Shown one piece after another: positions 2,362-28,346 of a stretch of 32,000 bases of DNA. The notes beneath the pieces are model-generated. The model was not told the origin of the DNA. It searched no databases and saw only the letters and a program-made list of their open reading frames with translations. The translations under genes were made by a program, and so were the position numbers. The DNA is from Acaryochloris marina S15. GTDB taxonomy: Bacteria; Cyanobacteriota; Cyanobacteriia; Thermosynechococcales; Thermosynechococcaceae. Position 1 is the stretch's first letter, and the number at the start of each line of letters is the position of its first letter. The stretch is taken from the NCBI RefSeq assembly GCF_018336915.1, contig NZ_CP064923.1, positions 2,130,001 to 2,162,000 on the forward strand. Reading direction: 5' to 3'.

Positions 2362-3645
2362 GTGATTCCTCCAGAGTTCTTGAGTGATATAGCCACTCAA
2401 CAAGGTGTATCCAAATCTGAATTAGCTGCCCTCAAGCTTGGAATAGCAGGGTATTCCACTGCTGATATTGGTGAACAGCTGGGGATTAGTGGGGATGCAG
2501 CCCGCAAGCGCCTAAGTGAGGTCTATCAGAAATTTGGGATTGCTGGGCGAGGCCCTGTCAAACTCACAAAACTCCAACAACTCCTGGTTGCGCGTTACCA
2601 AGAAGCCCTTGAGAATGGAAAGGTGGCTGCAAATGCTGTGGAGCTAGAGCAGGTTGATTGGGGCAATGCACCCGATGTGTCCGTGTTTTATGGCCGCACT
2701 GCAGAGTTAGAAAAACTAGAGCGATGGATTATTCATGATCATTATCGTTTGTTGGCACTCTACGGAATTTCGGGGATTGGCAAAACCACCCTGTCCGTAA
2801 AGTTAACCCAACGACTGCAACCCCATTTCGAAAAGATTTTTTGGCGTTCGCTGTACTATGCGCCACTCCTGCAAGATTTACTGATCGAACTGACGACTTT
2901 TCTTCAGGGTTCGCCACTGGACCCGCCTCTCGCGACTGTTTCAGAACAAATGGATTGGGTGATGGATTATCTGCAACATCATCGATGCTTGCTCGTCTTG
3001 AACGGTTTAGAATCCTTTAGTCGTAAGGGAGATCTGGCGGGGAATTATCAACCGAATTACGAAAACTACAGTCAGTTTATTCATCTGTTGGGAACGGTGC
3101 CCCATCAAAGCTGTGTCGTCACTACGAGTCAAGAGAAGCTGAGTGAGGTCGCCTATCTGGAAGGCCAAACCTTGCCTGTGGGTTCTTTTAAATTGCGTGG
3201 ATTGGAATTGGAGGAGGCAAAAGCTATTCTCCTAAACAAGGGGCTGACAGGAGAAGATAAATGGAAGTATCTTGTAGACGGGTATCGGGGCAATCCGATG
3301 ATGCTTAAACTGGTCGCCGAAACCATCAAGGAAGTGTTTGGTGGCAATGTCAGTGACTTTCTAGACACTAGCTTATTCACCAGAGATATTCACAATTTTA
3401 TAGAGCGAATTTTTGACCGTGTTTCGGAGCTAGAACGGAGAATTTTGTATATCCTGTCTGATCAAAGTGATGGGTTAGGTTTTAAGCAATTGCAAAGTCA
3501 ACTCGCCACTATCAACGCTCAAGACTTAATGAGTGCTCTCTCGTCCCTTCGCCAGCGATCACTGATTGAACATGTGGATCAGGGATTTATTCTTCCGCCT
3601 GTGATCAAAGAGGTAACCCAACAAATTATGGTGTCTGAAGCCTAA
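2362..3645 (+). CDS. STAND-class P-loop NTPase with an N-terminal sigma70-r4/LuxR-like HTH and a C-terminal winged helix, but no sensor repeats
   Basis: Starts at GTG 2362; an in-frame stop lies at 2329-2331. The N-terminus reads GVSKSELAALKLGIAGYSTADIGEQLGISGDAARKRLSEVYQKFGI (HTH). Walker A is GISGIGKTT (2764-2790). The Walker B region is CLLVLNGLES, with Asn at 3001-3003 where I recall LDN in the related cyanobacterial WD40/TPR STAND proteins. HQSCVVTTSQEKL and GNPMMLKLV follow, then a WH-like ...LSSLRQRSLIEH, and the protein ends. Confidence 0.75.
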   Translation: MIPPEFLSDIATQQGVSKSELAALKLGIAGYSTADIGEQLGISGDAARKRLSEVYQKFGIAGRGPVKLTKLQQLLVARYQEALENGKVAANAVELEQVDWGNAPDVSVFYGRTAELEKLERWIIHDHYRLLALYGISGIGKTTLSVKLTQRLQPHFEKIFWRSLYYAPLLQDLLIELTTFLQGSPLDPPLATVSEQMDWVMDYLQHHRCLLVLNGLESFSRKGDLAGNYQPNYENYSQFIHLLGTVPHQSCVVTTSQEKLSEVAYLEGQTLPVGSFKLRGLELEEAKAILLNKGLTGEDKWKYLVDGYRGNPMMLKLVAETIKEVFGGNVSDFLDTSLFTRDIHNFIERIFDRVSELERRILYILSDQSDGLGFKQLQSQLATINAQDLMSALSSLRQRSLIEHVDQGFILPPVIKEVTQQIMVSEA

Positions 3646-3652
3646 TCGATCG

Positions 3653-4810
3653 ATGGTGTATTGTCCAAATTCTAAGTGCAAACAGCGGCAAAATCCTGCA
3701 ACTGCAGAGAGCTGCCAAAGTTGCAAAACACCATTAATTCTCAACCATAACTATCGTCTGATTCGGCCTTTAGTGAATCTTGAACGATCGGGCAACACTG
3801 AAGTGTTTGAAATTGAGGATCTGCGCTGTACTCATCAGCCGAATCCAAGGCTAAAAGTCCTGAAGCTCCTCAAGTACAATGGCGGCGATCTAGAACGGTT
3901 GTTCAAACAAGAGGCGATCTATCTTCAAAGCCTTGACCATCCTGCTATTCCCAAAATTGATCACCAAGACTATGGGGACAACGGTTATTTTTCAGCTGTG
4001 GAGCCAGCCACTCATCGAAAAATCCATTATTTTGTGATGGAAAAGGTAGAAGGCAAAAATCTACGAGACTGGATACAGGATCAACCGACGATTGGTAACG
4101 ACACTCTTTTGAAGTGGCTTCGGGAATTGCTGACTATTTTGGACTATCTGCATACCCAAAATATTTGGCATCGAGATATCAAACCCTCCAATATCATGCT
4201 GCAACCGGATGGACAGTTGGTATTGATTGACTTTGGCGCTGTGAAACAAATTCGGCCTCACCGTGAAGAAGCCGGTGATATTCCCCCTCGACCAGACATT
4301 ACGGTTACAGATACCTGTGTTTTTGCTGCGGGATACACCCCCCCAGAACAAATGGATGGGAGAACGGTGCAGCAGTCCGATTTTTTTGCTTTGGGGCGGA
4401 GCTGTGTGCATTTACTCACCCAAATTCCTCCCTACAATCTGAGGGTTGATGATGGTGGGCAATTAGTCTGGCGAGAGAAAGTGCCTGACATTTCTGTGGT
4501 GCTTGCCGATTGGATTGATCAATTGATGTCTCCTTTGGTCAGAGACCGTCCTCAATCTGCGGCTGAAGTCTTGAGTCATATCCAATCAGAGAATATTCTG
4601 CCACCGCCTCAGACCCAAGATTCATCTGAAGGCGAGGTTTCATCAGGCTCTTCCCCTTGGGGCTCGTTGCTGAACCTTATTCTGTTCTCCATCCTGTTGA
4701 TCAGTGGTCTGTTGTGGTGGCAGGCCCACGAAAATAGCCAACCTATTCAAGATACGAATCAACAAGTGCAGCACCCTCTTCCATCTCTACGACTAGGAAG
4801 GGGGATTTAG
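3653..4810 (+). CDS. Ser/Thr protein kinase with an N-terminal 4-Cys zinc ribbon and a C-terminal TM anchor
   Basis: Starts 7 nt after the STAND stop codon. CPNSKC...CQSC forms the zinc ribbon. The catalytic loop is HRDIKPSN (HRD at 4169-4177), DFG is at 4229-4237, and GYTPPE is the APE-like motif. The glycine-rich loop is degenerate (ERSGNTEVFE). A C-terminal hydrophobic helix reads LLNLILFSILLISGLLWW. Confidence 0.85.
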   Translation: MVYCPNSKCKQRQNPATAESCQSCKTPLILNHNYRLIRPLVNLERSGNTEVFEIEDLRCTHQPNPRLKVLKLLKYNGGDLERLFKQEAIYLQSLDHPAIPKIDHQDYGDNGYFSAVEPATHRKIHYFVMEKVEGKNLRDWIQDQPTIGNDTLLKWLRELLTILDYLHTQNIWHRDIKPSNIMLQPDGQLVLIDFGAVKQIRPHREEAGDIPPRPDITVTDTCVFAAGYTPPEQMDGRTVQQSDFFALGRSCVHLLTQIPPYNLRVDDGGQLVWREKVPDISVVLADWIDQLMSPLVRDRPQSAAEVLSHIQSENILPPPQTQDSSEGEVSSGSSPWGSLLNLILFSILLISGLLWWQAHENSQPIQDTNQQVQHPLPSLRLGRGI

Positions 4811-6493: not shown

Positions 6494-6795
6494 AACCGTG
6501 ACCTAAGATCAGCTAAAGCTAGCTTAAATCTAGGCCCATCAGAGAAAAACGATTAAACTACGGAACTATTTGCACTGCCGTTCTATTCATTTACGTAGTA
6601 GTACTGATTGAGATCGGGTGAGGAATAACATAAATGCTGGGGGAACGGCAGGCCACTTGAGCCTGGATTTGTTCCTATGATGCCATGGTCAATGCTGGGC
6701 AGAGCAAGGTTGTTCATAGAACTCTATTTTTGGATGCGATTCCCACCAGTATGAAGCGTAAGGCCGGGGAAGTGTTGAGCCCAGTTGAGTCCATG

Positions 6796-6833
6796 AAAAA
6801 GACCCCATGTGAATAGACTGCTCTGAAGGGGGC
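6796..6833 (-). terminator. weak candidate intrinsic terminator after the CBS-PAS kinase gene
   Basis: The minus strand reads GCCCCC-20 nt-GGGGTC followed by TTTTTC, beginning 13 nt after the stop codon at 6846. The stem is short and imperfect. Confidence 0.25.
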
Positions 6834-6845
6834 AAGGCTAATTCC

Positions 6846-9800
6846 CTAGGCTGAAGTGCTTTTTGCAGGGATAGCAGCAGGTTGCGGGAAACAGATTTGG
6901 AAGGATGTCCCTGATTCTCGGTTGACGGTTAGGTTTCCTGAAATCTGTCGAGTCAAGGTTTTTACCATTCGCAATCCCAGGGTTTTGGAATGGGTGAAGG
7001 ATACCTGCTCGGGCATTCCGATCCCATTGTCGGTAACCGTTAGTGTGATCTCTGATTCGGGTTGTTCCAGGATATGGATGGTGATTATTCCACTACTTTG
7101 TTCTGGAAAGGCATGTTTGAGGGCATTGGAAACCAATTCGTTGATAATTAGGCCACAGGGGACTGCGGTATCAATGTCGAGATAGATATTGGCAATCCCA
7201 ATGTTGATCTGAGTGAGGCTGACTCTAGAGCGATAGGAACGCAAGAGGTTGTTCGTTAACTCTTTGACGTAAGTTTCTAGATTGATTTTGGAAAGATTTT
7301 TAGACTGGTAGAGATTCTCATGGACTAATGCCATGGATTTTACTCGATTTTGGCTCTCCTGCATCACTTCTGAAATATTAGTGTCAGGGTTTGCCTGAGT
7401 TTGAAGATTGAGCAAGCTACAAATGACCTGCAAGTTATTTTTGACTCGGTGATGAATCTCTTGTAGCATCACACTTTTTTCGGCCAGAGATTCAGATAGC
7501 TGCTGCTCAGAGACTTTGCGAGCACTGATATTTTGGATCTGAGTAATAAAGTGGAGGGGAAGGCCATTATCCTGGCAGACCAAGGAGGCACTGAGCAAAA
7601 TCCAAACGTCATGCCCTTGTTTGTGGATATATCTTTTTTCCGTATGGTAATTGTTAATTTCTCCTGTCAGCAGTTGCTCCGCTGATTTTAGGTCTAAAGC
7701 TAAATCATCTGGATGGGTAATGTCTTGGAACGTCATGGAGAGTAATTCAGCTTCTGAGTAGCCGACGATGTTGCAGAGGGACTCATTGGCCTTGAGCCAT
7801 TGACCGGCGGGTGAAATCAGGGCCATGCCAATCGCAGCTTGCTCAAAGGCGAGGCGAAAGCGTTCTTCACTTTCGCTGAGGGCGACTTCAATGCGATTTC
7901 GTTCTGTGACATCCACTGACACCGCCAGGGTACGAATAATGTTGCCGCTGGTATCTCGTTCTGCGATCGCAGACAACAATACATCAATCAACTCGCCATT
8001 TTTCTTCACCCACTGGTAAGGGATATCTCGGCAGGCACCCTTTTGAAAATATTGGGGTAGAACGAAATCACGGGCATAGTGTTGGGATGCTGATGTCAGA
8101 AAATCCGTCGAGGCTCGCCCCAACACTTCACTGCGGTCATAGCCCATTTGGGTCAGCCACGTATTACTGACACTGACCACTCTGCCGTCTTGGTCAATCG
8201 AGTGCAGCATGATTGGCGTGTTCTCATAGAGAGACCGATATCGAGCTTCACTAACAATGAGAGCCGTTTTTACCTGAGTCTGCTCACTAATATCTCGCTG
8301 AATCACCAGAATATGGGGGGATACACCGATTTCATCTGTAATCATCGAATAGGCACAATCGACAAACAGAGGCGATCCATCTCGACATCGGAATTCCAGG
8401 GTGTAGCGCCAATGTCCCTCCTTCAGCAAAATTTGCAATAATTGGGTATCAGTTAGGGGAGGAGCCGTAACCCAAAATTGATTTAAAGAACGATTCAAGA
8501 GTTCTGCTTCGGCATATCCCGACTTTTCCAGGACAGCAGTGTTAACTTGTTGAATCATGCCGTGCTTATTCAACACAAAAAGTAAATCTGGCGCAGACTC
8601 AAATAAAGATCGGTATCGATGCTCACTCGCTTGAAAAGCTGCCGTACTGAATTTGACCCGTTCTTCTAGTTCCTGATTGAGCTGTTGGAGCGCGAGTTCT
8701 GTTTGTTTGCGATCGCTAATATCCTCAACCACTGCAATAAAATAGTCAGGCTCTCCTGGAGCTGACGTGGCCAACGAGACCGTAACCTTTCCCCAGAAAA
8801 TAGAGAAGTCTTGGCAAAGGTAACGTTTCTCACGGGAAAAAGAAGACCTTTGGGACAAGATCAATTGTTGAACCAGCCGTTGGTCTTCTTCACGATCATC
8901 CACATGGGTAATATCCAGAAATGAAAGCTGCAACAATTCAGATTGAGAATATTTCAGCAACTCACAAAATCGCTGATTGACGGCGCGAAACCGGCCTTGA
9001 AGACTGACATGGGCAATCCCTACAGCAGCCTGTTCAAACGTTGATTCAAAGTGAGTTTGGCAAGATTGCAGCATCACCGCATCTGCTTCCACCTGATGCT
9101 CTAAAGTGGAATTGAGGGCTTGCAGAAGCTGAATTCTCTCATTTTGGAGCTGATCAACTTGGTCTTGCAAGATCTCTAAAGTCGTATACATATCAGAGCC
9201 ATTCAGCACGGATAGCATATTGCTTTGGGTGAGAACACCTGTTAACTGCCCAGCGGTATCTATCACCACCAGTCGTCTCACATGTAGCTTCTGCATGAAT
9301 TGCTGAGCGTGCCACAGGGTATCTTCAATGGTCAAACATTCTAAGGGACTGCTCATGACTGCCTGGGCCTGGAGAGATTTTAGGTCCAGTTCTAGAGTCT
9401 GATACTGAACAATATCCCTTTCAGTGATAATGCCAATCGGATAAAGAATGGAATCAGCATCTTGAACGTCTGTTTGGACAATCACCACACAGCTAATTTG
9501 ATGGGTGGCCATTATCTCTGCCACTTCCATCACAGAAGTTGAAGGAGAAGCCGTAATCGGTTGGGCATTCATTACTTCATGAACGGCCCGCATTTTCATT
9601 AATGTGCTGGGTTGGAGAGACTTCCGTAATCCCTCGGTTGTTATAACGCCAGTCACATGGGCTTGATCGTCGAGAATGGGGACATGACGAATATGATGTT
9701 GACGAAATAGACTGAGAACATTGAACGCATCCTTTAACTCAGAGGCTGGTAAGGTGATCAAATTCCGAGTCATCACATCAGCGATTTGGACAGCGTCAAA

Positions 9801-10100
9801 GTCTATCTCTTGAGCGCTTAACTTCACCACATCTCGTTCAGTAAAAATCCCTAATAATTGTTGCTGAACCATGATCAGCACATAGTTAACACGCTGGGGA
9901 GCTTTAGCCTCGAGAGGCTCAGATCCGGCCGCACAGGAGTCCGAACCCTGATTCATGCGGTTCAAAACGTCTCGTACAGAGGTATCGGGGGTACAAATAA
10001 GCGGATTTTTATCCACGGATTGTTGAAGAGCAACAATTCCAGATACTGGACAGGATAGGTTCCTCTCACCAATAGATATTGGATTTAACTGATTCGTCAT
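6846..10100 (-). CDS. multi-sensor histidine kinase: 4 CBS motifs (two Bateman modules), coiled coil, about 4 PAS domains, HisKA_2-type DHp and HATPase_c
   Basis: CBS-like repeats occupy the first ~300 aa (GIFTERDVVK, VTGVITTEGL, IGIITERDIV, LTGVLTQSNM). PAS repeats each end in DIS/T-ER-K/N linkers. The DHp is EIHHRVKNNLQVICSLLNLQ, and the ATPase shows NELVSNALKHAF, DNGIGMP and LGLRMV. Confidence 0.9.
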   Translation of the reverse strand: MTNQLNPISIGERNLSCPVSGIVALQQSVDKNPLICTPDTSVRDVLNRMNQGSDSCAAGSEPLEAKAPQRVNYVLIMVQQQLLGIFTERDVVKLSAQEIDFDAVQIADVMTRNLITLPASELKDAFNVLSLFRQHHIRHVPILDDQAHVTGVITTEGLRKSLQPSTLMKMRAVHEVMNAQPITASPSTSVMEVAEIMATHQISCVVIVQTDVQDADSILYPIGIITERDIVQYQTLELDLKSLQAQAVMSSPLECLTIEDTLWHAQQFMQKLHVRRLVVIDTAGQLTGVLTQSNMLSVLNGSDMYTTLEILQDQVDQLQNERIQLLQALNSTLEHQVEADAVMLQSCQTHFESTFEQAAVGIAHVSLQGRFRAVNQRFCELLKYSQSELLQLSFLDITHVDDREEDQRLVQQLILSQRSSFSREKRYLCQDFSIFWGKVTVSLATSAPGEPDYFIAVVEDISDRKQTELALQQLNQELEERVKFSTAAFQASEHRYRSLFESAPDLLFVLNKHGMIQQVNTAVLEKSGYAEAELLNRSLNQFWVTAPPLTDTQLLQILLKEGHWRYTLEFRCRDGSPLFVDCAYSMITDEIGVSPHILVIQRDISEQTQVKTALIVSEARYRSLYENTPIMLHSIDQDGRVVSVSNTWLTQMGYDRSEVLGRASTDFLTSASQHYARDFVLPQYFQKGACRDIPYQWVKKNGELIDVLLSAIAERDTSGNIIRTLAVSVDVTERNRIEVALSESEERFRLAFEQAAIGMALISPAGQWLKANESLCNIVGYSEAELLSMTFQDITHPDDLALDLKSAEQLLTGEINNYHTEKRYIHKQGHDVWILLSASLVCQDNGLPLHFITQIQNISARKVSEQQLSESLAEKSVMLQEIHHRVKNNLQVICSLLNLQTQANPDTNISEVMQESQNRVKSMALVHENLYQSKNLSKINLETYVKELTNNLLRSYRSRVSLTQINIGIANIYLDIDTAVPCGLIINELVSNALKHAFPEQSSGIITIHILEQPESEITLTVTDNGIGMPEQVSFTHSKTLGLRMVKTLTRQISGNLTVNRESGTSFQICFPQPAAIPAKSTSA

Positions 10101-10208
10101 CCGTAGATAGCTTTTCCCCCTGGTTAGTCATTTTTATTCGTTTTAAGATAAATATGACCTGATCCATCTTGAAAGCCTAAATTTATTGGCCCTAGATATA
10201 TCTTATGC

Positions 10209-12347
10209 CTATTCAGAACAAAATTTAAAAGCTTGTTCACGCACTAATTTATCGACTTGTTCGCTCGTTAACGGTCGATCAAAGTAATATCCTTGCCCAT
10301 ATTCACAGCCCAAACTTTGAACAGCAGCGAGCTGTTCCGCGGATTCGATGCCCTCTGCAATCACATCCATCTTTAACGTATGGGCAAGCACCACAATCGT
10401 GCGGACAATCTCTACCCGATCAGCATTGCGATCGATATACTGAATAAAAGAGCGATCCACTTTTAGGGTGTCAATGTCATATTTATGCAAATAGCTGAGG
10501 GAGGAATAGCCCGTCCCAAAGTCATCGATATGAATGCGAAGGCCCAATGTTTTTAACTCCGATAAAATTTGGGCCGCAGACTCAGGATTCTCAATTAAGG
10601 CACTTTCTGTAATTTCTAGCTTCAGGCTAGTCGCTGGGCACTTCGTTTCCGTCAGGATTGCGGCAATTTTTTGGACTAAATCGGGACGCGAAAAATGACG
10701 ACTGGAAAGATTGACGCTAACGTCTAACGTTCGCTCTGGGGGAAGTTGATCTTGCCACTTTCGTAACTGTTGGCAGGCTTCGCGGATAGCCCACAAATCT
10801 AAGGGCACAATCAGTCCGGTTTCTTCCGCCGTGGGGATAAACATTCCGGGTGGAATTAACCCCTTCTCTGGGTGTTCCCAGCGGGTTAGGGCTTCAAACC
10901 CAACAATCTCTTGATCCTGCAACGAGACGATGGGTTGGTAGTGCAACGTTAATTGCTGGTCCGTGATCACCCGCCGCAAGTCATTTTCTAGGGTTAATTG
11001 CCCTTTGACTTGGGTATGCATCACCGCATCAAAAACGGCATAACAGCCTTTGCCATTGGTCTTGGCCTGATACATGGCAATATCTGCATCCCGAATCAAT
11101 TCTTCGGCGAGAGCATATCGAATATTGCTTTGGACAATGCCAATACTGGCCGAATTAAATAGATCGTAGTTGCCTAGCTCGTAGGGCGCACCCAATTCAC
11201 GGTTGATCCGTTCTGCTAAGGTACAGACGCTATTAACATCTGCAATTTGCTCCAACAAAATTGCGAATTCATCCCCACCAAATCGAGCGACAGTATCGGT
11301 TGGGCGCAGGCATTTCTGCAACCGTTGAGCAGTGGCAATCAACAACTTATCGCCTACGGGATGTCCCAAACTATCATTGACCATTTTGAATCGATCTAAA
11401 TCGACAAACAGTACTGCAAACTCATGATTGACATATCGTTTGCTCATATTGATTAAGTGCTGAAGCCGATCCATAAATAATTCGCGATTGGGCAAATTTG
11501 TTAATGAATCATAGTAGGCATGGTGAAAGAGTTGTTGGTTGGCTTCTAGACGCTCGGTAATATCCCGAAAAACAATGACTGCTCCATGGGACTGGTTTTG
11601 GTCGTCAACAATAGGGACCGCACTATCATCAATGGGAATTTCTTCTTGGTTTTTGGTGATCAAGTAGGTGTTGTCGGGCAAAACCACCTCTTGATGTTCT
11701 CGCAAGACTTGCTTGAGCGGGTTTTCTAGAATATTTTTGGCAGTGCCCGTAATCAGCGGAATCACATCGCTAACATCTTTGCCTAGAGCCTCGGCTTGTT
11801 GCCATTGGGTAATCGACTCAGCCACACGATTCATATAGGTCACCGACCCCTGATTATCCGTTGCTACCACAGCATCTCCAATGCTGGCAAGAATAGTGTG
11901 TAGCCAGGTTTTTTGCTGTCTAACTTCTTGATCGAAGTGATGTTTGTGGAGGGCAATTTCAATGCTGGTCCGCAGATCCATGGGATCAAAGGGTTTAAGA
12001 ATATAGCCAAAGGGTGAGACCTGTTTAGCCTTGTTGAGGGTGTCTGCATCCGCAAACGCGGTTAAAAAAATAATGGGGATGTCGAGCTTGTCGGTAATCT
12101 TGGCCGCCGCTTGAATGCCATCAATGTTCCCTTTTAAGCGAATATCCATTAACACTAAATCGGGCTGTGCTTCCAGGGCCAAGAGAATCGCATCGGCACC
12201 GGTTTCGGCAATTCCAGGGACTTGATAGCCTAAATCGATTAAGTGACTTTCGATATCTAGGGCAATCAGTCCTTCGTCTTCAACCACCAAGATTTTGGCA
12301 GAGACCACGGGCGCAGGTCGTTTTTGTTGAGACAGAAGAGAAGACAT
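10209..12347 (-). CDS. response regulator REC-PAS-GGDEF-EAL (c-di-GMP synthase/phosphodiesterase, all catalytic motifs present)
   Basis: REC motifs: ILVVEDE, PDLVLMDIRL, ILKPF. The GGDEF site is intact, with an RxxD I-site five residues upstream (RPTDTVARFGGDEF). EAL motifs are all present: YQPIV, GFEALTRW, LEITES, DDFGTGYSSLSYL, KVDRSF, EGIES, GQGYYF. The start lies 9 nt downstream of the preceding kinase stop. Confidence 0.92.
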   Translation of the reverse strand: MSSLLSQQKRPAPVVSAKILVVEDEGLIALDIESHLIDLGYQVPGIAETGADAILLALEAQPDLVLMDIRLKGNIDGIQAAAKITDKLDIPIIFLTAFADADTLNKAKQVSPFGYILKPFDPMDLRTSIEIALHKHHFDQEVRQQKTWLHTILASIGDAVVATDNQGSVTYMNRVAESITQWQQAEALGKDVSDVIPLITGTAKNILENPLKQVLREHQEVVLPDNTYLITKNQEEIPIDDSAVPIVDDQNQSHGAVIVFRDITERLEANQQLFHHAYYDSLTNLPNRELFMDRLQHLINMSKRYVNHEFAVLFVDLDRFKMVNDSLGHPVGDKLLIATAQRLQKCLRPTDTVARFGGDEFAILLEQIADVNSVCTLAERINRELGAPYELGNYDLFNSASIGIVQSNIRYALAEELIRDADIAMYQAKTNGKGCYAVFDAVMHTQVKGQLTLENDLRRVITDQQLTLHYQPIVSLQDQEIVGFEALTRWEHPEKGLIPPGMFIPTAEETGLIVPLDLWAIREACQQLRKWQDQLPPERTLDVSVNLSSRHFSRPDLVQKIAAILTETKCPATSLKLEITESALIENPESAAQILSELKTLGLRIHIDDFGTGYSSLSYLHKYDIDTLKVDRSFIQYIDRNADRVEIVRTIVVLAHTLKMDVIAEGIESAEQLAAVQSLGCEYGQGYYFDRPLTSEQVDKLVREQAFKFCSE

Positions 12348-12356
12348 AAATTCTTG

Positions 12357-13808
12357 CTAATAAGAAGGTTGAGGGAAATGGATATTAAATGAGGTGCCAG
12401 TTCCTCGACTAACGGTTAAGGTGCCTGAAATCTGTCGAGTTAGGGTTTTGACCATCCGGAGTCCTAAGGTTTGGGTTTGTTCTACATTGATCTCATGGGG
12501 GAGTCCCATCCCGTTATCGGTAATGGTTAGGGTGATAGACTTTTCTGTGTTCTGAGTGACCTTGACCTTAATTTCTCCGCTCTCCTGGTCGGGAAACGCG
12601 TATTTGAGGGCATTGGAGACCAGTTCATTGATAATTAAGCCGCAAGGCACTGCTGTATCGATGTCGAGGTAGATACTGGCAATGGCAACGTGAATCTTGA
12701 TCTGGCTCATTTTAGAGCGATAGGACCGCAATAGATTGTTGGTTAATTCTCTAACGTAGGTTTCTAGACTGATTTTGGAGAGATTCTGAGATTGATACAG
12801 GTTTTCATGGACTAGGGCCATGGATTTCACTCGATTTTGGCTCTCCTTCATAATCTCAGTGATTTTTGGGTCGGGACTGCCTTGAGTTTGGAGATTAAGC
12901 AAACTACAAATGACCTGTAAGTTGTTTTTGACTCGATGGTGAATCTCTTGCAGCATCACGCTTTTTTCCGCTAGAGAATCTGCGAGCTGTTGTTCGGCAT
13001 ATTTGCGAGCACTAATATCTTTGTGAGTGCCCGACATCCGTTCGGGTGTGCCGTCGGCGTTTCGCTTCACGACTTGGCCGTAGGTCGCCATCCATTGCCA
13101 TTCTCCGGATTTTGTCAGGAATCGATAGTCGTAGGTGTAGGGTTCGCTGTTTTGTAAATGCCTGTCCAGTACCTTGGTAACGCCAGGCTTATCTTCTGGA
13201 TGGATCAAACTTTCCCAAGTACTCACATGGCCAGGAAGTTCCCCCACTTCATAACCCAGCATTTCTTCCCATCGAGGACTGTAGAAGACTTCACCCGTTA
13301 CGATATTCCAATCCCATAAACCATCCCCAGAACCCGAGAGGGCCATTTGCAGTCGTTCTTCGCTCAATTCCAGGGCTTGAGTTCTTTCTTTGACACGCTC
13401 TTCTAGCTGGGCCTTGGCGTGCTCAAGTTCTTCTCGGCTGGGTAAAAGAAGGGCTTGGGGAATAACAGGAATTAGGGCACCTGCTGTGGCTAGTGAAATG
13501 ATGGCTGTGGAGGCCTTAAGTACGCCGGATACCCAATAGATAGGATGCCAGAGTGTCCAGATCTCCATGATATGGGTGAGGCCACAGGTCACAATAAAGG
13601 CCCCAAAGAGCTGAAAAAGCCAGGGATAAGGTAAATCTTTGCGCTGGCGAACAAAGTGGATCAACGCCAGCGGAATTGAAAAATAGGCAATCGCAATTAA
13701 GGCATCCGAAGCAACGTGCAGCCCGACCAAACCAGGGTCCCACAGGTAACAATGCCCATGCGGTATAAGGGCAAAATGAATGAAATGGTCTTGGCTCCCC
13801 CCCGACAT
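12357..13808 (-). CDS. histidine kinase with an ETR1-like ethylene/copper-binding transmembrane domain, PAS, HisKA_2 and HATPase_c
   Basis: Residues 34-80 (SDALIAIAYFSIPLALIHFVRQRKDLPYPWLFQLFGAFIVTCGLTHI) align without gaps to Arabidopsis ETR1 24-70 as I recall it, with 29 of 47 identical. This includes the Cu/ethylene ligands: Cys75 (13586-13584) matches ETR1 Cys65 and His79 (13574-13572) matches His69. Three TM helices are followed by a coiled coil, a PAS domain (WDWNIVTGEVFYSPRWEEMLGY), EIHHRVKNNLQVI and the ATPase. Confidence 0.85.
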   Translation of the reverse strand: MSGGSQDHFIHFALIPHGHCYLWDPGLVGLHVASDALIAIAYFSIPLALIHFVRQRKDLPYPWLFQLFGAFIVTCGLTHIMEIWTLWHPIYWVSGVLKASTAIISLATAGALIPVIPQALLLPSREELEHAKAQLEERVKERTQALELSEERLQMALSGSGDGLWDWNIVTGEVFYSPRWEEMLGYEVGELPGHVSTWESLIHPEDKPGVTKVLDRHLQNSEPYTYDYRFLTKSGEWQWMATYGQVVKRNADGTPERMSGTHKDISARKYAEQQLADSLAEKSVMLQEIHHRVKNNLQVICSLLNLQTQGSPDPKITEIMKESQNRVKSMALVHENLYQSQNLSKISLETYVRELTNNLLRSYRSKMSQIKIHVAIASIYLDIDTAVPCGLIINELVSNALKYAFPDQESGEIKVKVTQNTEKSITLTITDNGMGLPHEINVEQTQTLGLRMVKTLTRQISGTLTVSRGTGTSFNIHFPQPSY

Positions 13809-14180
13809 TTCTATTCTCCTGACGAAAGATATCGCTAAAAACTCTGCAATATGATGCTTATAGTATACTTTGCTACCTTTAACCCCAAATATTCTGGAAT
13901 TCTAGAGATATATCCCATAGGATTACAGGTCGAAGTCTATAAGGCACCCGTATAAATACCTAATACACTAAGTATGTTGCCAGTTCATCAGTAGGACGAC
14001 CACTGTACATCTACTGAAATCATTTTCGTGAAACTTTTGTCAGCAGAGTGCTTCGGTCTCTCATCGGTGATGAGATCAGCAACCTAAGTAATATTACGGA
14101 TCTTGCTGCACTTGGCCCTTTTATCAAGGTATGGAGGAAACAACGATGAAAGAAAATGATGGTGTTTTTTCCTCTATTCC

Positions 14181-14220
14181 ATTAAAAACCGGGTTCCTCT
14201 TTGATCAGAAAAACCCGGTT
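14181..14220 (-). terminator. rho-independent terminator downstream of the VOC gene
   Basis: AACCGGGTT (14187-14195) and AACCCGGTT (14212-14220) are exact reverse complements around a 16-nt loop. On the minus strand the stem runs into a five-T tract, formed by its last two T plus TTT. It lies 18 nt after the stop at 14239. Confidence 0.6.
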
Positions 14221-14238
14221 GTGTTGAATGAAGGGTAC

Positions 14239-14607
14239 TTAGTGAGAATGACTGGTTGCAGGGACTTCTGCGGGTTGTAATAAGCTCAAAAGGTTGCCAT
14301 CTGGGGTTCGCATGGCAGCAACTTTGCCAAATGCTGGCTCTCTAACCCGACCTTCAAGTTGTGCACCTAACGATTCCAGAGTTGCGATCGCACCATGTAC
14401 ATCTTCCACATGAAAACTCAAAATAGGTGAATCACCACCCGCTGATTCACCAGCGGCATGTAGCGCAATGGTGGTTCCGTCGGCATCTAGCTCAGCCCAG
14501 CCGGGGGTTTGCATTTTCACTTTCAATCCCAGCCCTTCTGAGTAAAACTTCACGGTTGCTGGGATGTCTTTGACCATGAGCATGACATGTTTAAATTCAG
14601 CGGCCAT
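14239..14607 (-). CDS. VOC-family (glyoxalase/bleomycin-resistance/dioxygenase fold) protein
   Basis: The 122-aa protein begins FKHVMLMVKDIPATVKFYSEGLGLKV and shows the paired beta-alpha-beta-beta-beta pattern (LHAAGE...ILSFHVEDV...). Confidence 0.75.
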   Translation of the reverse strand: MAAEFKHVMLMVKDIPATVKFYSEGLGLKVKMQTPGWAELDADGTTIALHAAGESAGGDSPILSFHVEDVHGAIATLESLGAQLEGRVREPAFGKVAAMRTPDGNLLSLLQPAEVPATSHSH

Positions 14608-14773
14608 AATATTTGTTTCCTAAACGCCAATCACTGATCATGGTGACATTTTTTCAATCAATCGTGGCAATGCTATACCGAAGATTCTGCATCTCATTAG
14701 ATGCTTGAACGTTCTGAGTGATACATGTTCAGAAACTCAAAGTTCATGGGTTGCCAAAGGTCATACCCACTGC

Positions 14774-20662: not shown

Positions 20663-23600
20663 TTGTCAGTAATTCAGCAGTTCTGGAATCAATTAACCAT
20701 CGTCCCAAGACAACTGTCGTTGGGGCTCAAAACCCTGCTTCATAATTTAGAATCACCAACGTTAGCCTTACCAGAAGTCGCTCAGTCTCTGGCTACAGGC
20801 AACCACTTCCTGCTGGCCTACCAGAAACTGGCTGATTTGGATTCACAACATCTGTCCTTATCAGAGCGGCTGCAAAAATCAGTGGAAATTCTCAGTGAGA
20901 CCCTGGGATTTGCCATCGTTGTGCTTGACTTTTATGATCCTAGCCAACAGACCCTTCACTTTCAGGCTGGGACCATTAGTCTGCTCAATGATGAGGATGA
21001 TGGTGCACAACGTCTTAATCAACAGGTTAGCCAGGTATTAGGGGCCTCAACTCCCGCTGTTCTGGTTGATGATCAAGGGGTGACCAAGCAGACCAGTTTG
21101 GCGTCATACTTACCCCCTTCGGCATTACTCAAAACAGTTGTGCAAATGCCTTTGGCAACTAATCATACTGTTTTGGGGATGTTGACATTAGGGAGTCCTG
21201 AGCGACTGCCCGATGCCGATATGTTCTGTTTGTGGGGTAAGAATGTAGTTAGCTATTTGGCTTGGTTAATCCAGGCTGAGCGGGTTAACGACTACTTCAA
21301 TACCGTCCAAGAACGATTTACATTAGTCGCTAGCAGCTTTAGGGGCTGTTTCTACGACTGGGATATTGCCTCCGCTTCTATCCTGCAGTTTACGAAAATC
21401 AATGAGGAACAGTCGGCAACCTCTAATATTCCCCTTGAATTCTCTTTGCAAGAATGGCTAGATCAAATTCATCCTGATGATCGACAGCTGTTGGAAACTC
21501 TGGTTGATCAGGACTTTCAGGGGGAGGATCAATTTGAGCTTGAGTATCGTTGGCAATCGGACGGGCAGCCAATGTGTGATCGGGGCGTTATCCAGCGGGA
21601 TGCCCAAGGCGCGCCGATCCGGATTGTAGGAACCCTGACTAATATTGCCGCCCTCAAGCAGATAGAAGTTAATGCCCAGCAGCAAATTGATCGTTATCAA
21701 ACGCTGCTGGCTGATATCTCCATCGTCATCTTTCAGACGGATCTAGCAGGACATTGGACCTATCTCAATCCTGCTTGGTCTAAGTTAACTGGGCTTCCCC
21801 TAGAAGAAAGTCTAGGGAAACCCATGTGGGACTTTGTGCATCCCGACGATCGTCCTGGCTTCCAGAAGGCATTTCATAATCTTGTTGAACAGACCTCCGA
21901 AAGTTATGACCATGAGCTGCGCTTTTTTAGTCAGCAGGGTGGGTGCTCCTGGATTGTCGTTCATAACCACGTCATTCGATCTGAGGACGGAACCTGTACG
22001 GGCACGGCAGGCACTTTGGTGGATGCCTCAGAACGGAAACAAACAGAACAGGCCCTCCTCCATGATGCGCTCCATGATGGGTTGACCCAGTTACCCAATC
22101 GAGTGTTGTTTATTGATCGATTGGAACAGGCTTGCCGTTCTTTTCAACGGCATCAAAATGAAATTTTTGCCGTTTTGTTCTTAGATCTCGATCGGTTCAA
22201 AATTATCAACGATACTCTCGGCCATATGGTCGGAGACCAACTGTTGGTGGCTGTTGCTCACCGGTTGCAAACCTGTCTCCGGCCCGAAGATACGGTGGCT
22301 CGTATCGGGGGGGATGAGTTTACCTTGCTGCTCCCCAATATTGATCAGACTGAAGATGCGATGCATATTAGCGATCGCATCTTGCAATCCCTGAGTGAGC
22401 CCTTTACCCTCGATAATACTGAAGTCTTTATTACTATGAGCATCGGCATTGCCATGAGTGGCAATCCTGAGCATAAACCAGACGATTTGCTGCGCCATGC
22501 GGATATTGCCCTCTATCGGGCTAAAGCCAGTGGGAAAGGCTGTTATGCCGTCTTTACTCCAGAGATGCCCCTCCAGCCTCTAGCCCAGGTACAAATTGAT
22601 ACGGAACTCCGACAGGCCCTTGATGAAGAGGAGTTCCGCTTGTACTGTCAGCCCGTCCACTCCTTGGAAAATAATGAAGTCTGGGGGTTCACTCTCCAGA
22701 TGTACTGGCAGCATCCCAGCAAAGGGGTGTTACCTCCATCCGAGTTTCTGTCTGCGGTGATGGATACTGGACTGCAGCGAGCCATGGGCTGGTGGATTTT
22801 GCGCAAGGCCTGCTCTCAGCTCCCTCAGTGGCAGCGAACGCCAACGGAACAACCCTTATCTATTTGGGTGTCAGTGTCTGAGTCGCAACTGACATCCTCT
22901 AACTTCCTATCTAAATTTGAACGGTTGTTAGAAAGAAATGACATCAATCCCCAGCATTTGGTTATCGAGTTACCCCCATCTCTTTGGCCACAACCCTCCC
23001 AGAAAGTCTTGGCCCATCTCCAAGACATCCACTCGCGAGGGGTACAACTCGCTCGGGTTCAGGATAATCAAGATTTCGACTGGTTGTCTTCAGATGAACG
23101 TTTACCCATCGATTGGATTAAACTATCATCGACTCTCCTGGGTAACCTAGATCAGCAAGGATATTTAGAATCGATCCATTCGATGTTTATCCTGGCAGCC
23201 AATGCTGAAATAAAGATGCTGGCTGATGGAATTCAAACTCCAAAACAGCGTCTGTTGATGAGTGCGTTGAAATGCGATTATGGACAAGGCCATAATTTTA
23301 GTGATCCTATCCCTGCCCATGCCGCCGATCCCTGGCTTGAACCGTCATACTCTCAACCCCTTGACAGCATGAACCCCTCATCATCCATGTCCCTATTGAT
23401 CATCTACAGTCCGATTGGTCAGTCGCAAGTTCCTCTTGTGGGTAAGCGATCCTGGACGATTGGCCGTAGTCCGGATAACTCGATTGTCCTTCCAGACCGA
23501 TGGGCATCTCGCAATCATGCTCAATTGCGAGCGACAGATGTAGGCGAATTTTTCCTGATTGATTTGGGGAGTGGCAATGGGTCTGTCGTCAATGGTGAAC

Positions 23601-24250
23601 GGGTGACCATGCCCGTTGCTCTTAAGGATGGGGACCTGATTACCATTGGTCATTCTCAACTGGAATTTCATCACCGTCCCCGGGAATCTGCCTTAAGTGC
23701 CATCGAAACGGCACCGAAAAATGTCCTAATGATGCAGTCTTCCCATCTACAGGGGCAAGTTTGGAAAGAAGCAATGAGTTCTCAGGGCATTTCCCTGACT
23801 TGGCTGAATGAAAATATAGATTTGGCTCAATATCTGACCCAATCCATTAAGTCAGGGCAAGGGTTTCCAGATTTGTTGCTGCTGGATATGACAATCCTGA
23901 AGCCCAATCCCTACAGCTTCTGTCGGTGGTGTCATAATTTGCATCCCGATCTCAAAATTATCTTGACGAGTGGTACGCGGACATTTGTCCCCGCTTCTGA
24001 ACGGAAATGGGCGACCCATCAGGGTGCTTCTGAGCTGATTGCGGCGTTTGATGAGGGCAGCATTTTCTCAAATTTGATTGATGTGATGGCCAAGGTGAGG
24101 GTGGTCTTGGCGACCCTTAACTGGCGCCCGATTGAGCAAGGTTCGTTATCCTCTGCACTCTTAGCCATTAAACCCAGTCTAACGACGGCCACCTTCAACA
24201 GCCGTCAAACCATTATTGGTGAGCTACCTGCCGATCTAGAGTCAAACTGA
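20663..24250 (+). CDS. multidomain signalling protein: GAF-PAS-PAS-GGDEF-(degenerate EAL)-FHA-(atypical REC)
   Basis: TTG 20663 is the first possible start, since an in-frame TAA lies at 20654-20656; the true start is uncertain. The GGDEF site is intact with an I-site (RPEDTVARIGGDEF, GGDEF about 22307-22321). The EAL-like region lacks the catalytic residues: TLQ replaces EAL at 22691-22699, VSVS replaces N, VQDNQDF replaces DDFGTG, and IKLS replaces KxD. The FHA domain spans 23389-23674 (WTIGRSPDNSIVLPDRWASRNHAQL...GSGNGSVVNG...GDLITIG). The C-terminal REC-like fold keeps PDLLLLDM but lacks the acidic pair and the KP. Confidence 0.85.
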   Translation: MSVIQQFWNQLTIVPRQLSLGLKTLLHNLESPTLALPEVAQSLATGNHFLLAYQKLADLDSQHLSLSERLQKSVEILSETLGFAIVVLDFYDPSQQTLHFQAGTISLLNDEDDGAQRLNQQVSQVLGASTPAVLVDDQGVTKQTSLASYLPPSALLKTVVQMPLATNHTVLGMLTLGSPERLPDADMFCLWGKNVVSYLAWLIQAERVNDYFNTVQERFTLVASSFRGCFYDWDIASASILQFTKINEEQSATSNIPLEFSLQEWLDQIHPDDRQLLETLVDQDFQGEDQFELEYRWQSDGQPMCDRGVIQRDAQGAPIRIVGTLTNIAALKQIEVNAQQQIDRYQTLLADISIVIFQTDLAGHWTYLNPAWSKLTGLPLEESLGKPMWDFVHPDDRPGFQKAFHNLVEQTSESYDHELRFFSQQGGCSWIVVHNHVIRSEDGTCTGTAGTLVDASERKQTEQALLHDALHDGLTQLPNRVLFIDRLEQACRSFQRHQNEIFAVLFLDLDRFKIINDTLGHMVGDQLLVAVAHRLQTCLRPEDTVARIGGDEFTLLLPNIDQTEDAMHISDRILQSLSEPFTLDNTEVFITMSIGIAMSGNPEHKPDDLLRHADIALYRAKASGKGCYAVFTPEMPLQPLAQVQIDTELRQALDEEEFRLYCQPVHSLENNEVWGFTLQMYWQHPSKGVLPPSEFLSAVMDTGLQRAMGWWILRKACSQLPQWQRTPTEQPLSIWVSVSESQLTSSNFLSKFERLLERNDINPQHLVIELPPSLWPQPSQKVLAHLQDIHSRGVQLARVQDNQDFDWLSSDERLPIDWIKLSSTLLGNLDQQGYLESIHSMFILAANAEIKMLADGIQTPKQRLLMSALKCDYGQGHNFSDPIPAHAADPWLEPSYSQPLDSMNPSSSMSLLIIYSPIGQSQVPLVGKRSWTIGRSPDNSIVLPDRWASRNHAQLRATDVGEFFLIDLGSGNGSVVNGERVTMPVALKDGDLITIGHSQLEFHHRPRESALSAIETAPKNVLMMQSSHLQGQVWKEAMSSQGISLTWLNENIDLAQYLTQSIKSGQGFPDLLLLDMTILKPNPYSFCRWCHNLHPDLKIILTSGTRTFVPASERKWATHQGASELIAAFDEGSIFSNLIDVMAKVRVVLATLNWRPIEQGSLSSALLAIKPSLTTATFNSRQTIIGELPADLESN

Positions 24251-25420: not shown

Positions 25421-26236
25421 TTAGGTAGAGGCCCAGTGTTGGCGACCAGGGGTCAAGCCACGTCTGTTCTGGGCTGCCCGCATAAACTGGCATAAATGTT
25501 GAACCAAAGGATGCTCAGATAAGTCCTCGACTTGAGCCAAGGCTTTGTCTAGGTGAAGATTAGACCGATACAGATACCGAAAGGCTTGCTTGAGGATGGG
25601 CCGCATCTCCCCTTGCAATAAGTCATAGACCCCATGACGCTGTAACCCCACTTGGTTTAAGGCCCGGACATGGGCCGGATTTCCCTCTACTAGCATCAAG
25701 GGGGGGACATCACGGATAATCCGACTCATGCCGCCAATCATCGCCAGCTGCCCGATATGAACAAACTGATGAATCCCTAGAACGCCACTAATGTTGGCTT
25801 GGGATTCCACCTGGACATGGCCACTCAGGGCGACAGAATTGGCAATTACCACCCGATCAGCAATGTGGCAGTTATGGCCGATATGGACATTTGCCATTAA
25901 TAAATTATCGCTGCCAATGGTGGTGAACTGCTGGTCTCCACTGGCTCGATGGATGGTGACATATTCCCGTATCTGGTTGCGATCGCAAATCTTGACACCG
26001 CTTTGTTCCCCTCGGAAATTGCGATCTTGAGGTTCCATGCCCATCACCACTCCCGGAAAAATATGATTATCGGCCCCAATTTCAGTCCAGCCTTCAATTA
26101 CAGCATGGTGCCCCACCTTTGTTCGGGGGCCGAGTTTTACCTGTTCACCAATGACTGCATAAGCACCAATTTGAACAGTTTTATGCAAAGCTGCATGGGG
26201 ATGAATCACAGCTGTGGGGTGAATCAAGTCGGCCAT
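25421..26236 (-). CDS. lpxA: acyl-ACP:UDP-N-acetylglucosamine O-acyltransferase
   Basis: IHPTAVIHPHAALHKTVQIGAYAVIGEQVKLG is followed by serial hexapeptide repeats and a helical C-terminal domain. Total length is 271 aa. Confidence 0.92.
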   Translation of the reverse strand: MADLIHPTAVIHPHAALHKTVQIGAYAVIGEQVKLGPRTKVGHHAVIEGWTEIGADNHIFPGVVMGMEPQDRNFRGEQSGVKICDRNQIREYVTIHRASGDQQFTTIGSDNLLMANVHIGHNCHIADRVVIANSVALSGHVQVESQANISGVLGIHQFVHIGQLAMIGGMSRIIRDVPPLMLVEGNPAHVRALNQVGLQRHGVYDLLQGEMRPILKQAFRYLYRSNLHLDKALAQVEDLSEHPLVQHLCQFMRAAQNRRGLTPGRQHWAST

Positions 26237-27870: not shown

Positions 27871-28346
27871 TCCACCATCGCAAACATCAACTCTCCCGAA
27901 CAGGCCAGTTTGCCATCCACTTCGGCCTTGGTGGACATCATGGCAAACCGTTTGCGCTTCAAAGACAGAAATTCAGCCGTGATCACTAGCTGGTCTCCAG
28001 GAACCACAGAGCGGCGGATTCGGACTTTATCGATACCCGTGAACACAAATAATTTGCCAGAGGGAACATCGGGAAGTTGAGCGAGGACAATGCCGCCTAC
28101 CTGAGCCATAGCTTCCACAATCAATACCCCTGGCATCAGGGGGCGACCGGGGAAATGGCCTTGAAAGAACTCTTCATTCATTGTCACGTTTTTGATGCCC
28201 ACCGCCCGCTCAGACTCTTTGTAGTCGATAATGCGGTCCACTAGCAGAAAGGGATAGCGATGGGGCAGCAGCTCTTGAATCTCCTCAATCATGAAGGTGG
28301 TTTTGGGATCGGTAGAGCCATCAGAGGGATTTGACATAATAAGCAA
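27867..28346 (-). CDS. fabZ: 3-hydroxyacyl-ACP dehydratase
   Basis: [39 protein letters not shown], and the hot-dog fold length (159 aa; the start may be the internal Met at 28337). Confidence 0.93.

Follow-up and report, generated by a model that had tools for sequence, protein, structure and literature searches.

The genes described here lie in a stretch of 32,000 nucleotides (nt) from the cyanobacterium Acaryochloris marina S15 (contig NZ_CP064923.1, positions 2,130,001 to 2,162,000), which is referred to as the window throughout. The gene of main interest is found on the reverse strand (12357-13808) and codes for a sensor histidine kinase of 483 residues. According to the open reading frame (ORF), Pfam matches, orthologues and an AlphaFold2 (AF2) model, this kinase consists of an ethylene-binding domain (EBD), a linker helix, a PAS domain, a HisKA_2 domain and a HATPase_c domain. 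The next gene on the same strand (10209-12347) codes for a response regulator of 712 residues with the domain order REC-PAS-GGDEF-EAL, as assigned from Pfam matches, motifs and conserved adjacency. It is followed by the gene for a second kinase (6846-10100, also on the reverse strand, 1084 residues), for which Pfam detects four CBS and four PAS domains ahead of a HisKA_2 and a HATPase domain. A preliminary description, made from the nucleotide sequence alone, had pointed to the first two of these genes.

Judged by profile and alignment, the N-terminal domain of the EBD kinase truly belongs to the ETR1 type of ethylene-binding domains, and its copper ligands occupy equivalent positions. The preliminary description had proposed such a domain with three transmembrane (TM) helices and had suggested a profile search, which has now been run. 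The Pfam family ETR1_N (PF25487, 'Ethylene receptor 1-like, N-terminal domain') matches residues 27-120 with an E-value of 7.5e-42 and 142 bits, the gathering score being 27, and profile positions 2-95 of 97 map onto these residues without indels, a match well above anything that chance would give. Together with residue mapping and the AF2 model, this match places the ethylene/Cu(I)-binding domain, with its three predicted TM helices, at 13449-13730 (reverse strand).

In a MAFFT alignment, residues D35, Y42, I45, P46, I72, C75 and H79 share columns with D25, Y32, I35, P36, I62, C65 and H69 of ETR1, which are the seven residues reported to be necessary for ethylene binding by the Arabidopsis receptor (AtETR1). 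In addition, K98 aligns with ETR1 K91. The first four of these residues are located in helix 1, the next three in helix 2 and K98 in helix 3. The pairing of Asp35 and Tyr42 with ETR1 Asp25 and Tyr32, as proposed earlier, is recovered in the same alignment columns, and that of Cys75 and His79 with the ligands C65 and H69 holds in the alignment to plant receptors and to AzoEtr1 from Azospirillum brasilense. The 29 identities previously counted in an ungapped alignment over the 47 ETR1 residues 24-70 were reproduced exactly; the count is 43 of 91 over residues 20-113, and 28 of 47 against a database sequence from Noccaea. The ETR1 query matched Brassicaceae ETR1 clusters (95-98% identity), which supplied database sequences for the alignment.

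Across the EBD family, the seven binding residues and K98 either do not vary or are conserved to at least 90%, as seen in an alignment of 59 diverse EBD representatives, and among 19 close orthologues the binding residues are likewise unchanged or almost unchanged in 18. The same alignment of representatives (A1) defines a motif in the N-terminal extension, P16-H17-G18-H19-C20-x-x-W23 (window 13740-13763, reverse strand, with the HGHC core at 13749-13760), of which H, G, C and W are invariant. This P-H-G-(H)-C-x-x-W motif also occurs in AzoEtr1, while plant receptors have C-x-C instead. Like other cyanobacterial receptors, the kinase has one N-terminal cysteine (C20, within HGHCYLW), where plants have two. 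C20 may be the cysteine of a dimer disulfide, and the literature on the N-terminal cysteines proposes a disulfide role only. As a separate observation, the H-G-x-C-x-x-W motif might serve as a copper-acquisition site.

The term 'plant-type', which had been applied to this domain, is correct in so far as the domain is of the ETR1 type, but as a label it is loose. By alignment this is the cyanobacterial form, with an N-terminal extension of about 30 residues, which carries the HGHC motif, and with three residues fewer than in plants in the loop that joins helices 2 and 3. It is the kind of ethylene/copper-binding domain that plants inherited from cyanobacteria. From the residues that are conserved, we infer that the kinase binds copper and ethylene.

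The cytoplasmic part of the protein begins with a long linker helix between TM helix 3 and the PAS domain (residues 125-160, 13329-13436, from AF2 secondary structure). A single PAS domain follows (residues 163-264, 13017-13322; Pfam PAS_3 at 174-262, supported by Foldseek), and then the DHp domain of HisKA_2 type (residues 288-363, 12720-12947, from Pfam, motif and alignment) and the HATPase_c catalytic domain (residues 391-481, 12366-12638, from Pfam and motifs), all on the reverse strand. The Pfam E-values are 3.5e-30 (104 bits) for HisKA_2 and 2.2e-14 for HATPase_c. PAS_3 is the only Pfam match between the EBD and the kinase core, with neither GAF nor PHY detected there. The previously proposed connection of the EBD, through one PAS domain, to a HisKA_2 kinase is hence borne out by Pfam.

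The HWE_HK profile scores 30 bits (cut-off 22.8) against 104 bits for HisKA_2, and the classical HisKA profile (PF00512) does not match the kinase at all. By profile score, the protein is best called a kinase of HisKA_2 type, the HWE signature not being strong. EIHHRVKNN forms an intact H-box (288-296), the N-box (394) and the G1 box DNGMG (431) are intact as well, and H291, R292, V293, K294, N295 and N296 are invariant in alignment A2. H291 is the probable phospho-acceptor, as read from the H-box.

The AF2 model, computed from 45 homologues, has a mean pLDDT of 80.5. It predicts helices at 25-55, 62-85 and 91-120, which represent three consecutive N-terminal TM helices, and a basic loop (RQRKD) can be read between helices 1 and 2. 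In the cytoplasmic part, the model shows the linker helix at 125-160, a PAS fold at 163-264, a two-helix DHp domain at 266-338 and the catalytic domain at 348-479. The PAS domain superposes on 3MR0 with a TM-score of 0.91 and 39% identity (Foldseek), and its residues W165, D166 and W167 are near-invariant. The solved structures nearest to the kinase are those of Brucella LOV-HK (6PH4) and Erythrobacter EL346 (4R3A), which are light-sensor kinases of the HisKA_2/HWE type.

Kinase and regulator genes are separated by a spacer of 9 nt (12348-12356, reverse strand), the junction reading TAG caagaattt ATG. This is the c-di-GMP (cyclic di-GMP) turnover regulator that the preliminary description had placed 9 nt downstream, and its domain order has now been established as REC-PAS-GGDEF-EAL. 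A consensus scan revealed no terminator-like site within the spacer, and from the gene arrangement the two genes are likely to be co-transcribed. All motifs looked for are present in the regulator: D68 in the REC domain (LMD), RPTDTVARFGGDEF, EALTR, NLS, EITE, DDFGTG, KVD, EGIE and GQG. The I-site RPTD is found five residues ahead of GGDEF, both together spanning residues 348-361, with EAL at 485 and DDFGTG at 608. The I-site with GGDEF, the EAL motif and DDFGTG are conserved in the 11 orthologous regulators examined, except for DDFGTG in the most distant one (locus L044; L numbers are our labels for loci). The nearest NCBIfam matches of the regulator are phosphodiesterases, below the cut-off. 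For both kinases encoded in the window, PhyK is the best NCBIfam match, and the receiver of the regulator scores 104 bits against receivers of the PhyR family. These matches fit a kinase-receiver pair of the HisKA_2 type, and the regulator is the probable cognate partner of the EBD kinase on the basis of its position and its receiver.

The adjacency of the two genes has been kept over large evolutionary distances. An identical kinase protein is encoded on a Logan contig of 20 kb, where the genes are ordered as in the window. At loci where the kinase is 88% (L007), 70% (L008), 68% (L002/L003), 67% (L004) and 64% (L010) identical, a REC-PAS-GGDEF-EAL gene is directly next to it, and the flanking genes are wholly different among these loci. 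In total, the pair of kinase and REC-GGDEF-EAL regulator was found in at least 12 genomes, with kinase identities of 46-98%. When species-representative genomes were analysed, all 13 EBD-HisKA_2 kinases were found to be followed by a REC-containing gene: REC-GGDEF-EAL in six cases (Halomicronema, Phormidesmis, Leptolyngbyaceae, Pseudanabaenaceae metagenome-assembled genomes (MAGs), and Pleurocapsa/Pleurocapsales with 46-48% identity), a REC-HisKA kinase in five, as in Nostoc, and another REC protein in two.

EBD-PAS-HisKA kinases mostly precede receivers of about 140 residues, as does AzoEtr1. In the Nostoc-type arrangement, an EBD-PAS-PAS-HisKA_2 kinase is followed by a REC-PAS-HisKA-HATPase gene and by no c-di-GMP enzyme (L009:6001-9504 from Nostoc sphaeroides CP045226, and also L026, L032, L033 and L038), and this gene order suggests a kinase cascade as an alternative output. 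As far as gene order tells, the clade-specific trait is the conserved pair of EBD kinase and REC-GGDEF-EAL regulator. Outside the cyanobacteria, we observed an EBD-HisKA_2 kinase with 40% identity, also followed by a REC gene, in a MAG from Verrucomicrobiota (L035:6001-7866).

The second kinase of the operon, with its CBS and PAS domains, shares 74% identity with the EBD kinase over the kinase core and 87-89% over the DHp domain. The helix carrying the phospho-acceptor histidine is even identical in both proteins, and their PAS regions are unrelated. For comparison, DHp identity to the EBD kinase is 89% for this paralogue, 90% for the orthologue with 88% overall identity, 75-83% for the orthologues with 64-70% overall identity, and 52-60% for unrelated HisKA_2 kinases. 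Recent gene conversion had to be considered as a cause of the near-identical cores, but is rejected, as third codon positions of the two kinases are only 54-57% identical; this low value points to an old duplication that has been kept by selection. It seems from the comparison of DHp domains that selection keeps the same partner-specificity surface on two kinases which flank one response regulator, and both kinases probably act on the regulator encoded between them. The CBS-PAS kinase is also found at the orthologous locus L007, while a CBS-GGDEF protein occupies its position in L002 and L015.

Among the orthologues, one protein deserves separate mention. P0138 (L010:225-1679, MAG GCA_039814705.1) is 64% identical to the kinase from the window, and it has NGQA in place of HGHC as well as the replacements D35E, P46L and C75G, the last of which removes a copper ligand. 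This is a natural variant seemingly devoid of the ethylene site, and the absence of the cysteine ligand makes it a ready-made negative control for work on the receptor.

To estimate how common the domain is, residues 1-126 were searched exhaustively with HMMER against 1.84 billion cluster representatives (50%-identity clusters). In this search, 8,664 EBD clusters passed E<=1e-3 and 1,594 passed E<=1e-30; the proteins are between about 220 and 1,830 residues long. Of the nearest 150 representatives, 68 carry HisKA, 25 (17%) carry HisKA_2, and seven have GGDEF and/or EAL directly. A Pfam scan of 59 of these 150 proteins detected ETR1_N in all 59, HisKA in 37, HisKA_2 in seven, GAF and REC in 11 each, and GGDEF with EAL in two. 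As a homologue search with the EBD only gave just short or partial proteins, architectures were taken from the full-length and representative searches.

The full-length search revealed about 19 orthologues of 481-484 residues with an identical Pfam set and 64-98% identity. It also revealed more than 80 proteins of about 650 residues from Nostoc, Desmonostoc, Nodularia and Calothrix, which consist of an EBD, two PAS domains and HisKA_2. In public databases, these relatives go under the names 'PAS domain S-box protein' or 'sensor histidine kinase' and nothing more specific. The closest species-representative genomes (Phormidesmis priestleyi, Halomicronema, Leptolyngbyaceae and an 'Acaryochloris' MAG) reach only 69-76% identity, and a close representative of the source is thus absent from this set. 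Going by domain matches, the EBD-PAS-HisKA_2 architecture is recurrent rather than singular and is widespread in databases.

An ancient, stable clade of EBD-HisKA_2 fusions was considered and is unsupported: seven of the 25 HisKA_2-linked proteins cluster by EBD similarity where 4.0 are expected, and 251 of 2000 shuffles reach seven. As HisKA_2-linked EBDs do not cluster by EBD similarity, the EBD must have been recombined with output modules many times.

We consider it probable, with a likelihood of roughly 65%, that the protein is a Cu(I)-dependent ethylene sensor kinase which controls c-di-GMP turnover through the adjacent regulator. Ethylene sensing is supported by the presence of all seven binding residues and by the gap-free alignment with the EBD of AzoEtr1 (Carlew et al., PLoS Genet 2025), residues 1-130 of which bind 14C-ethylene (PMC11819568). 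In the proposed mechanism, Cu(I) would be held by C75 and H79 among the three N-terminal TM helices and would bind ethylene. The signal would then pass through the D35-K98 pair and the extension of helix 3 to the linker helix, the PAS domain and the HisKA_2 core, which would autophosphorylate at H291. By analogy with ETR1 and SynEtr1, the ethylene receptor of Synechocystis, ethylene would most likely lower this autophosphorylation and with it the kinase output. The phosphoryl group would be transferred to D68 of the co-transcribed REC-PAS-GGDEF-EAL protein; less phosphotransfer to D68 would shift the balance between synthesis and hydrolysis of c-di-GMP, and this shift could affect motility, aggregation or biofilm behaviour. 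Information on energy or redox state probably reaches this regulator through the CBS-PAS kinase. Domain composition, the conserved binding residues, gene order and its conservation, and the catalytic motifs are there to be seen in the data; the sign of the regulation, the phosphotransfer partner and the physiological output are what we infer from them.

A more far-reaching proposal is put forward only tentatively, and we would rather doubt than assert it. In one clade, which comprises thin filamentous and pleurocapsalean cyanobacteria, ethylene perception may have been wired into c-di-GMP metabolism, with the EBD kinase and, in some genomes, the CBS-PAS 'energy-state' kinase both phosphorylating one REC-PAS-GGDEF-EAL enzyme.

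Several points weigh against the view of the protein as an ethylene sensor for c-di-GMP turnover. The function of HisKA_2-type EBD kinases, including this one, is read from sequence. The TM domain is modelled with moderate confidence (pLDDT about 50-79), and no solved relative came up when the PDB was searched by sequence with the EBD. The sign of the ethylene effect is extrapolated from ETR1: a lowering of autophosphorylation by ethylene has been shown for AtETR1, and the evidence is indirect even for SynEtr1. The sequence does not tell whether phosphorylation would favour the GGDEF or the EAL activity, nor whether c-di-GMP would rise or fall. Finally, P0138 retains the PAS domain, the kinase core and the adjacent REC-PAS-GGDEF-EAL gene, and this orthologue indicates that the kinase can persist without an ethylene site.

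Among the alternatives, the one that survives best, although we regard it as rather unlikely, is that the ETR1 fold and the copper site have been kept for a signal other than ethylene. Copper or redox status, or another small molecule that binds to Cu(I), such as a different alkene or CO, would then be reported to the c-di-GMP regulator. The occurrence of the EBD in about 8,700 protein clusters across many bacteria that are not associated with plants, including the MAG from Verrucomicrobiota, would agree with this, and the invariant H-G-x-C-x-x-W motif, which plants do not have, hints at additional metal chemistry. A preprint from 2025 attributes a second activity, Ca2+ permeability, to plant ETR1/ERS1 and leaves bacterial homologues open. 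Nevertheless, wherever bacterial proteins or organisms with the seven residues have been tested (SynEtr1, Geitlerinema cells and AzoEtr1), ethylene is bound at nL/L levels, and all seven residues are conserved in the kinase from the window.

It is less probable still, and in our view improbable, that the three-helix domain serves mainly as a membrane anchor or dimerisation module, so that the PAS domain would be the real sensor and any binding of ethylene would be of no consequence. P0138, which has lost the cysteine ligand and other key residues, shows that PAS domain, kinase and partner are retained nonetheless; the PAS domain is highly conserved; and EBDs have been freely recombined with different outputs. 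However, a mere anchor would not be expected to keep its binding residues near-invariant, as is seen in 59 representatives and in all but one of 19 close orthologues, and point mutations in the EBD of AzoEtr1 abolish its function. We consider it very unlikely that the adjacency of kinase and regulator is genomic only and that the true partner is encoded elsewhere: HisKA_2 kinases often act on single-domain receivers from other loci and the neighbour in Nostoc-type relatives is a REC-PAS-HisKA kinase, but a gap of only 9 nt, an adjacency kept in at least 12 genomes with wholly changed flanks, a REC gene next to 13 of 13 EBD-HisKA_2 kinases and the PhyK-like/PhyR-like match all argue for the regulator next door.

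If the EBD kinase indeed senses ethylene and both kinases act on this regulator, one bifunctional c-di-GMP node would integrate a gaseous signal with the metabolic status. An ethylene receptor would thereby be linked to a second messenger by a molecular route, for the first time in any organism, and a mechanism would be at hand for the known effects of ethylene on motility and biofilm of cyanobacteria. Ethylene, an environmental gas that is produced by plants, would, if this is confirmed, be tied to the main bacterial switch between the motile and the sessile state. Ethylene receptors from outside the plants have been tested in three organisms only, and their downstream outputs are poorly understood; the conserved gene pair predicts a short, testable pathway from ethylene via a histidine kinase to a c-di-GMP enzyme. 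Moreover, a compact HisKA_2-type receptor of 483 residues should be useful for biochemical and structural work on the still unsolved EBD.

The surroundings of the operon contain further features. Upstream of the EBD kinase gene is an AT-rich intergenic region of 430 nt (13809-14238, reverse strand, from sequence), which is presumed to contain the operon promoter. Neither consensus scans nor Rfam revealed a specific regulatory element in this region; Rfam found no family in the entire window, and when 6600-14700 was scanned for promoter and terminator consensus sequences, matches were as frequent as in shuffled sequence. GC content is uniform (about 0.46-0.53), and nothing in it suggests a recent transfer. 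About 7 kb from the operon, a second c-di-GMP enzyme is encoded on the forward strand (20663-24250), a PAS-GGDEF-EAL protein of 1195 residues with a C-terminal FHA domain, and a gene resembling it is also found near the orthologous locus L007. Two adjacent genes on the forward strand (2362-4810) code for an NB-ARC/ATPase_2-like protein (427 residues, weak matches) and a Ser/Thr protein kinase (385 residues); this pair is conserved beside the operon in L001 and L007. Finally, an ORF of 516 residues without Pfam or NCBIfam match (26320-27870, forward strand) is located on the opposite strand within an Omp85-lpxC-fabZ-lpxA-lpxB cluster, between lpxA (25421-26236) and a probable fabZ (27867-28346), the latter named from size and position only.

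The known system closest in design is AzoEtr1 of Azospirillum brasilense Sp7 (OH82_RS30505), an EBD-PAS-histidine kinase of 525 residues. Disruptants of its gene have lost ethylene binding and biofilm formation and are not complemented by D35A and C75A alleles, and a gene for a receiver of 135 residues is located immediately downstream (PMC11819568). We recovered the AzoEtr1 gene from plasmid ABSP7_p1 (L005:2501-4078), where Pfam detects ETR1_N (9.7e-39), PAS_4, HisKA (PF00512, 41 bits) and HATPase_c. In both proteins, the N-terminal EBD is followed by one PAS domain and a histidine kinase, and in both loci a REC gene is directly downstream in the same orientation. D35, Y42, I45, P46, I72, C75, H79 and K98 even have identical numbers in the two, and their EBDs are about 49% identical without a gap over residues 1-125. 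Overall identity is 27% (525 and 483 residues, respectively). In AzoEtr1 the DHp domain is of the classical HisKA type (PF00512), whereas that of the kinase from the window is of the HisKA_2 type (PF07568); its partner is a stand-alone receiver of 135 residues without an output domain, as opposed to a REC-PAS-GGDEF-EAL protein of 712 residues; and its alphaproteobacterial locus lacks a second kinase, in contrast to the CBS-PAS kinase found here.

SynEtr1 (UirS, PixA, slr1212) of Synechocystis sp. PCC 6803 binds ethylene and affects phototaxis and biofilm. According to its description in the literature, it is, like the kinase from the window, a cyanobacterial EBD protein with the seven residues and a single N-terminal cysteine, and is a histidine kinase with phosphotransfer to a neighbouring response regulator. 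It differs in its cyanobacteriochrome (PAS/GAF) module, which makes it a dual receptor for light and ethylene, whereas only a PAS domain is present in the window kinase. Its regulator slr1213 activates transcription of the small RNA csiR1, while the regulator described here is predicted to be a c-di-GMP enzyme.

Geitlerinema cells bind ethylene, and two receptors have been described from Geitlerinema sp. PCC 7105 (Allen et al. 2019, PMC6682694), GeiEtr1 (EBD-GAF-HK, HK denoting histidine kinase) and GeiEtr2, a hybrid of 1025 residues (EBD-PAS-PAC-GAF-HK-REC). By these descriptions, both are EBD proteins from a filamentous cyanobacterium with all seven residues, as is the case here, and GeiEtr2 also has a PAS domain after the EBD; unlike the kinase from the window, neither is described as being of the HisKA_2 type. 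It has been noted in print that GeiEtr2 is grouped with a gene whose product contains a diguanylate-cyclase domain.

Arabidopsis ETR1 and ERS1 share the EBD fold and the binding residues, with C65/H69 corresponding to C75/H79. The plant receptors have an N-terminal CxC pair rather than HGHC, three additional residues in the loop between helices 2 and 3, and GAF in place of PAS. They contain a HisKA kinase, with an additional receiver in ETR1, and signal mainly through CTR1 and not by phosphorelay. From the opposite side, EL346 (4R3A), Brucella LOV-HK (6PH4) and PhyK, which give the best PDB matches by sequence and fold and the best NCBIfam match, have the PAS-DHp(HisKA_2)-catalytic core in common with the kinase from the window. 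They are soluble light or stress sensors without a membrane EBD, while the window kinase has one.

The wiring of the protein had been considered as not characterised. For the HisKA_2 core with a GGDEF-EAL partner this still applies: our literature search, with the catalogues of Lacey & Binder 2016, Wang et al. 2006 and Carlew et al. 2019 (Small Methods) lying outside its scope, found no work in which an EBD kinase of HisKA_2 type, or any ethylene receptor, is tied mechanistically to cyanobacterial c-di-GMP. It does not apply to the EBD-PAS-HK design as such, which is already CHARACTERISED, having been characterised in AzoEtr1 in 2025, and the diguanylate-cyclase neighbour of GeiEtr2 was in print as well. 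The kinase from the window belongs, as could be expected, to a large bacterial family for which Pfam already has a model, and it differs from AzoEtr1 in DHp class and partner. What sets it apart is its HisKA_2 core, together with a conserved REC-PAS-GGDEF-EAL partner and a second kinase that would converge on this partner, a combination that is plausible, yet represents ordinary modular variation among two-component systems.

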